DNA of 16,401 nt from a virus (taxonomy: Duplodnaviria > Heunggongvirae > Uroviricota > Caudoviricetes). Below are positions 2,421 to 5,400 of this stretch, in pieces. Each line of letters starts with the position of its first letter. The stretch's first letter is position 1. Made by a program: the position numbers. The stretch spans positions 1-16,401 of IMG/VR virus record IMGVR_UViG_2695420564_000003. One strand, 5' to 3'.

Positions 2421-5400
2421 ATCGACTTCGAAGGTTCGAATCCTTCCCCCACCACCATTACTTTCAAAAATCCCTGAACTCTCAAACAAATCCGTAATTG
2501 AATATTCTGCCTATGCGGGGAAGGACGAGAAGCTTCGACTAAGGTTCGACTCGAGCGCCAGCGAGAGAGCGTTGCCGCAGGCAACGACCCGCAGGGCGAA
2601 GCGCGCAGCGCTGAGTCATCCTTCCCCCACCACCATTACTTGATTCCATTCTCACTCCTTCGGCTTTTCCCCCATTCGCCTTAAAAACTGCTGCTGTAGC
2701 CTCAACAAATCCGCTAACGTTAACAACCGATAATCCAGCCCTTGTTGCCAGGCGATACCTGCAATAATGCGACTTAACGCAGGGTAATGGCGATGATGCC
2801 AGTGAGGGAAAAGATGATGAGTAAGATGCAAATTAATCCCGCCCAGCCAGTAGCCAAGCCATGCTGGATGTGGCGTCCAGTCAAAGGTCGTGGAGAAAGT
2901 ATGCGCCAGCCGCCCTTTCGCCACTTTGCCTGTATCTGGCGGTAATTGCGTGTATCCCTTCGCCCAGTGCGTACCAATAATCAACATGACGAAGACCAAT
3001 GAAGAGAGCATTTGACTTAGCAGATACGTCAGCAAAATGGTCATAAAGTTGAATACACCAGACAGCAGCCAAAAAGGTAGTATCAAACACATCGCTCCGT
3101 GCGCCAGCTTACCGGCTAAAAAATACCACCAGCCAGCAAAACCACGCAGAGACAGATGACGCGTTACCGGCGTAACGCCTGCGCGATCGAACCAGTCCAC
3201 CACCCATATATACCAGGGAAAGGTGAGCGCCGCGACCAGCGGCCAGTAGCGATGTTGCTGACGCATAAACGGTCGCCACCGTTGCCACGGAGTCTGGCGA
3301 AGAATGCCATTTTCTGCGGTGTCAGGATCGTAAAATTCAATATTAGTAAAGCCGTGATGAAAGCGAACATGGCGCACCCGCCAGCAGTCAGGATCAAGCC
3401 CTATCGGGAACGCAACCAATCGGTTAAGCCAGACATTGGCCTTTTTACCGCGCAGAAACGCATCGTGCGAAGCGTCGTGTACAACATTTACTGCCAGCAA
3501 CATAGCGCAAAACATCATCGCCAGATACCACAATAAATACAGTCCCCACTGATGCTGAGACAACGCCAGTAAGTAACAGGAGAAACAAGCAATAACCAGC
3601 ACCGCCATTTTGGTGAATGCCCAGCCGTCGGCATACCGATGATCGCCTGATTTCGCCAGATAAACTCTCGTATCGTTTTGCAGCTGTTTCACCAGCTGCG
3701 GATCATCGGCAGGAAAAATGATTAACCTGTCGGGATTAAACAGGTTCATAGCGTTTCCTTAGCGGCTTACGGCCTATACCAGCCACAAATAACACGCAAT
3801 GCACCAGCAAAACGCCCGCGACGCCCTTCCAGAGTAAAGTGCTCCATGAGCACATATAAAGAACAAAATAAAGTAGTGACAACGTCACAGATACCCAAAG
3901 AATCATCCCCCAACGCTGCCCATCACTGATGCCGCCCAATGCCACCGACCCCGCCACCAGCAACAAAAATAATACGACCTGTTCCCTGGTTATAAATTCA
4001 ATAGCGTAGCCATATTGCTGAATATACCCAATTACTAGCATAAACAGCAGAATCACCCCGCCTCCAACGGCCCACGGTGAACTCTGATATTGGCGTTCAA
4101 TAACCTGACCAAAAGAGCGTAAGCCGATTAAGCGTAAAAAGGGCAAATTGCTTTCGCGCATCGGATTACATGACAAATGACTATTCTTCACACCGAAAGC
4201 AACACTGGCATAATCCGGTCCAGTGCTAAACGATCCGAAAAGTTTATCCCACCACAAAAAGGTACCGCCGTAATTAGTGTCTGCGTATTGCTTTTCATTC
4301 AGGTGATGAATCCGATGATGCGAAGGCGTGATCAGCACTTTCTCCAGCCAGCCCAGTTTCGGCGTTAGCGCGTTATGATTAAAAAATTGCCAACTGTAGT
4401 GAATAATAGAAACCGTCAAAAAAACCTGCAACGGCACACCAAGCACCGCCAGCAGCATAAAAAACGGGATTGAGGTTAGCGAGGAGTACCACGAATTACG
4501 CACGCCTAATGACAGGTTATAATGTTCCCCCTGATGATGCACCACATGTACCGCCCACAGCGGGCGCATTTCGTGATGCCAGCGATGCAGCCAGTAAAAG
4601 CCGAAATCCCACGCCAGCAGAGTAAATAGCCACAACAAAATCACCGGAGCATGATCAAAAATCCCAAAGCTGAAATGATTAATCACCAGGCTATAACAGA
4701 GCACTTCCAGGCAACGAAATAACCACAGCATCATCTGTCCCGAGTTGATATTAAAAATAACGTCCAGCCAGTCAATTTTTTGCCGTCCGGTAAATTGCAA
4801 CACGCCTGCTTCGGCTAACACAAATAACACCATCAGGATGATGGGAATTAATAAATCACTCATGATTCGTTTTCCTTTCCTGCTTATTGCGCATATCCAG
4901 CCGCGCAGCTATCCAACCGCAACCCGACGCCAGCAACGCGCCGCCAACTAAATCGATAAATAAATGCCTGCGTAACTGCAGAATCGAAAAGGCGATGGCT
5001 ATCGCTCTTACCATGCTCCGGGAACCTGTACTTTCTACGGCACCGCCAATACCAACCAAATGGTGGTTGAATTTATGGGGATGCAGTTGCCTGGCTCTTC
5101 ATTTGTTCATCCTGACTCTCCATTGCGTGATGCATTAACTGCCGCCGCCGCGCGCCAGGTAACGCGTATGACCGGTAATGGCAACGAATGGATGCCAATC
5201 GGTAAGATGATCGATGAGAAAGTGGTGGTGAACGGTATTGTTGCGCTGCTGGCAACAGGTGGTTCCACTAACCACACGATGCATCTGGTGGCGATGGCGC
5301 GTGCTGCGGGTATCCAGATTAACTGGGATGATTTCTCCGATCTTTCTGATGTCGTTCCGCTGATGGCGCGTCTGTATCCAAACGGTCCAGCCGATATAAA

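Follow-up and report, generated by a model that had tools for sequence, protein, structure and literature searches.

We have found that a pair of genes for membrane di-iron enzymes, one a fatty-acid desaturase and the other a hydroxylase of the sterol-desaturase superfamily, forms the tail of a compact seven-gene operon that is native to the chromosome of Escherichia albertii. The pair was met in a 16,401-nucleotide stretch of DNA (IMG/VR virus record IMGVR_UViG_2695420564_000003, positions 1 to 16,401; hereafter the window), where it stands beside tandem tyrosine tRNA genes and has the look of a self-contained operon of two genes. That look most probably results from a misjoin inside the PAP2 gene that precedes the hydroxylase gene. 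The best overall explanation, to which we give a probability of roughly 0.7, is that these are the last genes of the operon, left in a misjoined sequence, and that their products tailor the output of a lipid pathway. We hold one part of this reading with high confidence: the genes belong to the seven-gene operon, and its truncation in the window is artefactual.

Results

The desaturase gene (2652..3749, minus strand, 365 residues) is gene 7, the last of the operon, and the hydroxylase gene (3736..4863, minus strand, 375 residues) is gene 6. The two open reading frames (ORFs) overlap by 14 bp, and purine-rich, Shine-Dalgarno-like stretches, AAGGAAA and AGGAAAGGAAAA, can be read 5' of both ATG codons, in agreement with the first-pass annotation of the window. 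Its family assignments were likewise upheld by Pfam. The integral-membrane desaturase matches FA_desaturase (PF00487) over residues 67-340 with 83.3 bits (cut-off 29.7), and the hydroxylase matches FA_hydroxylase (PF04116) over residues 78-211 with 99.2 bits (cut-off 31). All of the histidine boxes quoted earlier were found in translation, as HDASH, HVRFHH, HLTHH and HWHHRH in the desaturase and as HRWHH, HVVHH and HHRIHH in the hydroxylase. In alignments of 22 desaturase and 25 hydroxylase homologues, reaching down to ~45-50% identity, desaturase residues H91, H95, H127, H131, H132, H311 and H312 are invariant and H308 nearly so, and H261, H319 and H321 are likewise invariant; in the hydroxylase, H93, H96, H97, H106, H109, H110, H182, H183, H186 and H187 are invariant. 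Hydrophobic segments of the desaturase precede box 1 and separate box 2 from box 3.

The hydroxylase shows an Scs7p-like helical cap-and-membrane fold. Its AlphaFold2 model (mean predicted local distance difference test score, pLDDT, 80.9; predicted template modelling score, pTM, 0.79) places four predicted helices outside the Pfam domain, at residues 263-361. The C-terminal extension that had been called unusual is thus real, but it is a trait of the subfamily and no peculiarity of one gene, since it is kept in all 25 aligned homologues. Fold comparison gave no match for this four-helix module. By sequence, neither protein matched a solved structure, nor did a profile of the hydroxylase. The desaturase matches no curated NCBIfam equivalog, and some databases label it an acyl-CoA or linoleoyl-CoA desaturase. 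The only NCBIfam match of the hydroxylase is the OlsE equivalog (NF052566), at 66.4 bits against a cut-off of 475, a score that leaves it outside that family. The best protein matches of both genes come from E. albertii, at 98-99% identity (98% for the desaturase). Since the ratio of nonsynonymous to synonymous substitution rates (dN/dS) is 0.10 for each gene against its E. coli CFT073 orthologue, both genes are maintained by selection, and this selection is purifying.

The first-pass annotation had treated the pair as a two-gene operon, a description that gave way on comparison of gene neighbourhoods. Nine E. albertii loci were retrieved together with their flanks (L082-L090), and in every one of them the two genes come sixth and seventh in a row of seven. 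Eight of these loci were listed among many assemblies with an exactly matching hydroxylase, and the ninth is the representative of a 99%-identical cluster. The order is a FabH-like ketosynthase III (KAS III, 335 residues), an OleD-like short-chain dehydrogenase/reductase (SDR) of the NAD-dependent epimerase/3beta-hydroxysteroid dehydrogenase (3beta-HSD) type (338), a metallo-beta-lactamase (MBL)-fold hydrolase (268), a TIGR02304 adenylate-forming enzyme (428), a PAP2_3 protein (205), the FA_hydroxylase (375) and the FA_desaturase (365), and neighbouring genes overlap or abut. The operon is flanked by narG-narH-narJ-narI on one side and by tyrV-tyrT and purU-ychJ-rssA-rssB-galU-hns-tdk-adhE on the other; it is a native chromosomal locus of E. 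albertii, running from narI to rtT-tyrV-tyrT. Window positions 427-5018 are collinear with these chromosomal loci at up to 99.87% identity (L083, L089), and the rssA-ychJ-purU flank reaches only ~91% identity to any genome in a set of 5,426 complete E. coli genomes. In E. coli CFT073 all seven genes recur, generically annotated, in the interval from the RtT small RNA to narI. Where the nine E. albertii relatives have the full set, the window has only genes 6 and 7 and the last 150 bp of gene 5.

The E. albertii type-strain draft (NBRC 107761) offers a further view of the hydroxylase gene. Its contig NZ_BBMY01000134.1 (L005, 1-810) begins inside the gene, at residue 65, and window positions 4497-4672 match positions 3-178 of that contig in a separate alignment, outside the main one, which suggests that in that draft too the hydroxylase gene was misassembled or slightly rearranged.

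What the window retains of gene 5 is the 3' stub of the PAP2_3 gene (4856..5005, minus strand; 49 codons and a stop), recognized by translation and by tblastn with the CFT073 PAP2 protein. The stub keeps the RRHLFID (HxxxD) motif and overlaps the start of the hydroxylase gene by 8 bp, as in intact loci, and in L082-L090 the intact 205-residue PAP2 gene stands at the same position. Two junctions had been singled out for checking in the first-pass annotation. The one at 2643-2652 is natural, being collinear with all E. albertii loci, whereas the one near 5005 is a blunt join of PAP2 to edd, which base-by-base comparison placed exactly at 5005..5006. Up to 5005 the identity to E. albertii is perfect; from 5006 onwards the sequence is edd, entered in mid-gene at the S codon of ...ASYHAPGTC.... 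The join truncates both PAP2 and edd and is accompanied by no insertion sequence (IS) element, repeat or useful microhomology. No PAP2/edd join occurs in the comparison genomes, including all E. albertii genomes retrieved. In an independent E. albertii-like contig (L093; Logan ERR15561418), edd lies in its normal context, pykA-hexR-zwf-edd-eda-purT-yebG, and window positions 5006-7038 are 99.4% identical to positions 5199-7230 of that contig.

The join is not the only one of its kind. At least four more bring in a plasmid piece, a phage lysis fragment, an ABC-transporter ATPase fragment and a prophage, and three of them are marked by Ns, so that the 16-kb window has at least five unnatural joins and at least six unrelated pieces, joined inside genes. 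We infer that the window is a poorly merged patchwork of draft sequence. Because it is made of so many unrelated pieces joined in this manner, the truncation of the operon at 5005|5006 is, as judged from sequence comparison, most probably an assembly artefact, and in the organism itself the operon is most probably complete. The first-pass annotation had named a misjoined contig in advance as grounds for abandoning its reading, and the join at 5005|5006, the other joins and the Ns amount to just that. Sequence beyond 5005 should not be read as context of the operon.

On the other side of the pair, ARAGORN identified the tandem tRNA-Tyr(GTA) genes tyrT and tyrV (2254-2338 and 2373-2457, plus strand). 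The tRNA 3'-end-like repeat that had been reported near the end of the operon is present, but it does not mark an islet. Its match to Rfam RF00391 (2504..2635, plus strand; 127.7 bits, gathering score 45) identifies it as the native RtT RNA element of the tyrT operon, which is context and not part of the seven-gene operon. The RtT element, a repeat within the tyrT transcript, closes with a copy of the tRNA 3' end, and CFT073 has it annotated at the corresponding position. The operon adjoins tRNA-Tyr in CFT073 and in the loci of three other Escherichia species (L002-L004) also. Synonymous divergence (dS) from CFT073 is 0.63-0.67 for the two genes and 0.59 for the neighbouring purU, and the G+C content (0.46-0.53) is like that of the flanks. 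Because dS is close to that of purU and the tRNA-Tyr neighbour is common to the Escherichia species loci, a vertical history fits better; the simplest form of it is an ancestral Escherichia locus that was lost from most E. coli lineages.

E. albertii genomes vary in their number of rtT / tRNA-Tyr repeat units (L084 and L090 versus L083). The distance from the desaturase gene to purU ranges from ~380 to 910 bp among them, so the tyrT locus is length-polymorphic within the species.

The genes had been placed outside the E. coli housekeeping set, which agrees with their absence from most E. coli: 674 of the 5,426 complete genomes (~12%) carry them. The carriers include CFT073, Nissle 1917, ATCC 25922, 83972, E2348/69 and ST131, all of which we take to be of phylogroup B2. 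By database source names the operon also occurs in E. fergusonii and E. marmotae. A wider sample was drawn by a pattern scan with one genome per species, giving 80 loci that were searched by tblastn with the seven CFT073 proteins. All or nearly all seven genes are present, co-linear and tightly packed, in ~77 of the 80, and the operon spans three proteobacterial classes. Enterobacterales are among the groups spanned, and the genera include Escherichia, Yersinia, Serratia, Pectobacterium, Erwinia, Rahnella, Providencia, Morganella, a Klebsiella-like group, Cedecea, Pseudomonas, Acinetobacter, Gilliamella, Snodgrassella, Neisseria and Azoarcus; Brucellaceae-type Alphaproteobacteria have a rearranged and more divergent version that lacks the desaturase. 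Since no flanking gene is conserved across genera among the 80 loci, the conserved unit is the operon itself.

Against the seven genes of the Escherichia operon, many other genera have eight, with two tandem desaturase paralogues, D1 and D2 (~54% mutual identity), 3' of the hydroxylase gene (among L006-L081; for example, L013 11067-13291). Escherichia, Providencia and Morganella have D2 only, Acinetobacter and some Pseudomonas have D1 only, and the window desaturase falls in the D2 group. Given this difference in D1/D2 content, taxa may differ in how many double bonds their product carries.

The family assignments of the five upstream proteins are as follows. The KAS III protein retains its Cys/His/Asn motifs in translation, and its nearest solved relatives are MxnB (4v2p, 169 bits) and CorB (4yuc, 155 bits), enzymes that condense two acyl chains head-to-head. 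The best NCBIfam model for the SDR is OleD, a 2-alkyl-3-oxoalkanoate reductase (154 bits). The nearest relatives of the MBL protein are lactonases, and UniRef labels the E. coli protein 'GumP-like'. The 428-residue protein has no Pfam domains and matches NCBIfam TIGR02304, 'F390 synthetase-related protein', over its full length with 755 bits (cut-off 252), by which it is a predicted PaaK-type adenylate former. The PAP2 protein matches Pfam PAP2_3 and, faintly, the model of a Bacteroides phosphoinositol-dihydroceramide synthase; the PAP2_3 family includes phospho-headgroup transferases, such as inositol-phosphoceramide synthases.

Discussion

The role proposed here for the operon draws on family membership and gene linkage. 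The adenylate-forming enzyme would activate a carboxylic acid, the KAS III would condense or extend acyl chains, the SDR would reduce the 3-oxo group of the intermediate, and the MBL-fold hydrolase would release or open it. At the membrane, the PAP2_3 protein would add or remove a phosphate-containing group. The hydroxylase would then add a hydroxyl group to, and the desaturase put a double bond into, the hydrocarbon chain of the membrane-embedded product. Both di-iron enzymes would draw on O2 and on an electron donor supplied by the host cell, since none is encoded in the operon. The end product would be a specialized fatty-acid-derived membrane lipid or lipid-like metabolite. We lean, by a modest degree, towards the two di-iron enzymes tailoring this lipid product of their own operon. 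The more general wording of the first-pass annotation, an uncharacterised membrane-lipid modification, continues to be the best broad description.

Several observations weigh against this interpretation. Full-text searching of the literature found no paper on the operon, no experimental data and no described product, so its substrate and product can only be inferred. Genes for an acyl carrier protein, an electron donor and a transporter are all missing from the operon. The KAS III protein is only slightly closer to MxnB and CorB than to true FabH (148 bits), and the OleD score of the SDR is far below the 580-bit cut-off. A few loci carry partial sets; of these, L079 has the PAP2 and hydroxylase genes only, and L054 (Neisseria sp.) has genes 1-4 and the hydroxylase gene, without PAP2 and desaturase. 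Both were checked for hidden F390-like or desaturase genes, and the candidate ORFs were unrelated; the hydroxylase can therefore work in other contexts. Finally, the case for an artefact at 5005|5006 is built on sequence comparison, and a real rearrangement in this particular strain keeps a small probability.

As to how the locus came to look as it does, the first-pass annotation saw a possible islet integrated at a tRNA. The nearness of the operon to the tyrT/tyrV genes and to a repeated tRNA 3' end, together with its patchy occurrence in E. coli (12% of complete genomes), would be expected of such a mobile element. The repeat, however, is a normal part of the tyrT transcript, and complete loci show neither an integrase nor a mobility gene from narI to tyrV (the absence of an integrase had already been remarked upon for the window), so that the locus does not qualify as a tRNA island. 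The operon keeps the same position in E. albertii, in L002-L004 and in E. coli, with dS comparable to that of flanking core genes and G+C like theirs. In most other genera it is not next to a tRNA at all: a tRNA scan of 20 loci found none within the 10-kb flanks of 14 of the 17 from other genera, and in the remaining three the tRNA lies ~3 kb upstream of the first operon gene. Integration at the tRNA is thus scarcely credible, and this reading was dropped after the Rfam match and the tRNA scan. Alternatively, the strain might have undergone a real deletion or rearrangement that brought the operon up against edd, so that two genes remain of it, either silent or served by a new promoter. The two remaining genes are indeed intact and 98-99% identical to functional-looking orthologues. 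Yet a join that cuts both PAP2 and edd within their codon series with no IS element, repeat or useful microhomology, that is seen in none of the E. albertii genomes retrieved, and that shares its window with at least four further joins of unrelated DNA, all inside genes and three with Ns, makes a true fusion very unlikely. What looks like a two-gene unit at the tRNA is most probably an ordinary native locus that was cut short by faulty joining of the draft.

The function of the pair has also to be set against two other proposals. The enzymes could be stand-alone modifiers of bulk membrane lipids, acting in phospholipid acyl desaturation or in hydroxylation of the ornithine-lipid or lipid A type, independently of the upstream genes. 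OlsE is after all the sole NCBIfam match of the hydroxylase, some sources label the desaturase an acyl-CoA or linoleoyl-CoA desaturase, and L079 shows a PAP2-hydroxylase pair free of the upstream genes. We consider this unlikely: the hydroxylase reaches only 66 bits of the 475 that the OlsE model requires, and the translational overlaps (14 bp and 8 bp) and co-linearity with genes 1-5 in ~77 of 80 loci from three proteobacterial classes represent a linkage too tight to be expected of independent genes. The analogy with the CrtW ketolase and CrtZ hydroxylase, offered by the first-pass annotation, would make of them a carotenoid or isoprenoid tailoring pair. The same two superfamilies, FA_desaturase and FA_hydroxylase, are involved, and the first desaturase box, HDASH, is presumably CrtW-like. 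The conserved partners are, however, a ketosynthase, an SDR, an MBL hydrolase, an adenylate-forming enzyme and a PAP2 protein, that is, enzymes of fatty-acid or polyketide type, and the 80 loci have no crt or other isoprenoid gene among their conserved neighbours. CrtW and CrtZ are also much shorter than 365 and 375 residues, and no NCBIfam carotenoid model matched at E<=0.01. The carotenoid reading, which we regard as extremely improbable, was given up on gene neighbourhood, there being no linkage to crtE, crtB, crtI or crtY. An anti-phage role was dropped as well, as PADLOC returned no meaningful match.

Tailoring of a lipid made by the operon itself, our preferred reading, can be compared with known systems. 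Like the PF00487 desaturases, the window desaturase has three histidine boxes (HX3H, HX3HH and HX2HH). The closest kind is probably that of the cytochrome-b5-less 'front-end' acyl-lipid desaturases, such as the cyanobacterial DesD. The window desaturase does not stand alone but is embedded in a biosynthetic operon. From other members of the PF04116 superfamily (Scs7p/FA2H, OlsE, ERG3/ERG25, CrtZ), the hydroxylase differs by its four-helix C-terminal membrane module and by its tight coupling to a PAP2_3 gene. We class both proteins as new and uncharacterised members of enzyme kinds that are already known.

The four upstream genes show the same sequence of chemistries as the OleABCD olefin / beta-lactone pathway, with a thiolase-fold condensing enzyme, an OleD-like SDR, an adenylate-forming enzyme and a hydrolase of a lactone-opening family. 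OleC, however, is of the ANL type and the adenylating enzyme of the operon of the PaaK/F390 type, and OleB has an alpha/beta-hydrolase fold where the operon has an MBL fold. None of the operon proteins matched an OleA, OleB or OleC model, which sets the operon apart from OleABCD orthologues. To our knowledge, genes for PAP2, hydroxylase and desaturase proteins are not part of the Ole pathway. The resemblance extends no further than the chemistry, and is a lead and not a classification. The same three enzyme types recur in Xanthomonas, downstream of the xanthan gum cluster, if gumO is, as we presume from its annotation, a KAS III, gumP an MBL-fold protein and chd2 an SDR of the 3beta-HSD type. 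Neither gumO nor gumP has a demonstrated role in xanthan synthesis or elsewhere (PMC2585010).

It is conceivable, though on balance doubtful, that the operon is a non-orthologous counterpart of the OleABCD route leading to a new class of hydroxylated, unsaturated, long branched-chain (phospho)lipid. In such a route, the KAS III would join two acyl chains head-to-head, the OleD-like SDR would reduce the resulting 2-alkyl-3-oxo acid, the PaaK/F390-type enzyme would adenylate the reduced acid, and the MBL lactonase-like enzyme would process the lactone or thioester. The PAP2_3 protein, hydroxylase and desaturase would finish the hydroxylated, unsaturated (phospho)lipid. If so, the lipid would be made by E. 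albertii, by B2-type E. coli (CFT073, Nissle 1917, ST131) and by Serratia, Pectobacterium, Yersinia, Providencia, Pseudomonas and bee-gut symbionts.

RefSeq already contains both protein sequences, generically named, and in CFT073 the locus has been available since that genome was sequenced. Its interest lies in a strongly conserved and selected operon in well-studied strains (CFT073, Nissle 1917, ATCC 25922, E2348/69, ST131) as well as in numerous Proteobacteria that associate with plants, insects or humans. A putative O2-dependent lipid pathway, present in E. coli strains both uropathogenic and probiotic, could influence the properties of the envelope or the interaction with the host, and it is tractable for genetic and lipid analysis.

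Other segments of the window

Three unrelated pieces occur within the first 430 bases. Positions 1-238 are a plasmid piece, 100% identical to E. coli plasmids, including one of the enterotoxigenic E. coli (ETEC) strain H10407, and lie inside a hypothetical gene. Part of a phage lysis region (M15 metallopeptidase / DUF2570) follows at ~235-425, and a single N at 426 cuts rssA in mid-gene.

On the far side of the operon, the block 5006-7045 contains the 3' two-thirds of edd, a complete eda gene and the 3' end of purT, and is 91.7% identical to E. coli. The purT gene is cut at 7038, and scattered Ns occupy 7039-7045. In the independent E. albertii-like contig (L093, 4560-6370), edd is split into products of 232 and 372 residues by a one-base difference just after ...GTANTNQ, possibly reflecting a pseudogene or a sequencing error in that sample.

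An ABC-transporter ATPase fragment (~7046-7183) and a single N (7184) precede a prophage segment at 7185-16401, of which 9.1 kb is 97% identical to E. coli prophages, such as those of FORC_042 and O145:H28. The ORF at 7090..7725 is chimeric and is another artificial join: its first ~31 residues resemble an oligopeptide-type ABC-transporter ATPase (...IAMIFQEPMVSLNPLHT...), and the residues encoded beyond the N at 7184 are those of a phage antirepressor. Besides the antirepressor gene, the prophage segment has genes for lysis (Rz-like), an HNH endonuclease, the small and large terminase subunits, a prohead protease-capsid fusion and a portal protein. A further prophage ORF of 113 residues (8739-9080) begins with an apparent lipoprotein-type signal (…LLSSLVMGC), and its C-terminal part reads as TonB C-terminal-like.

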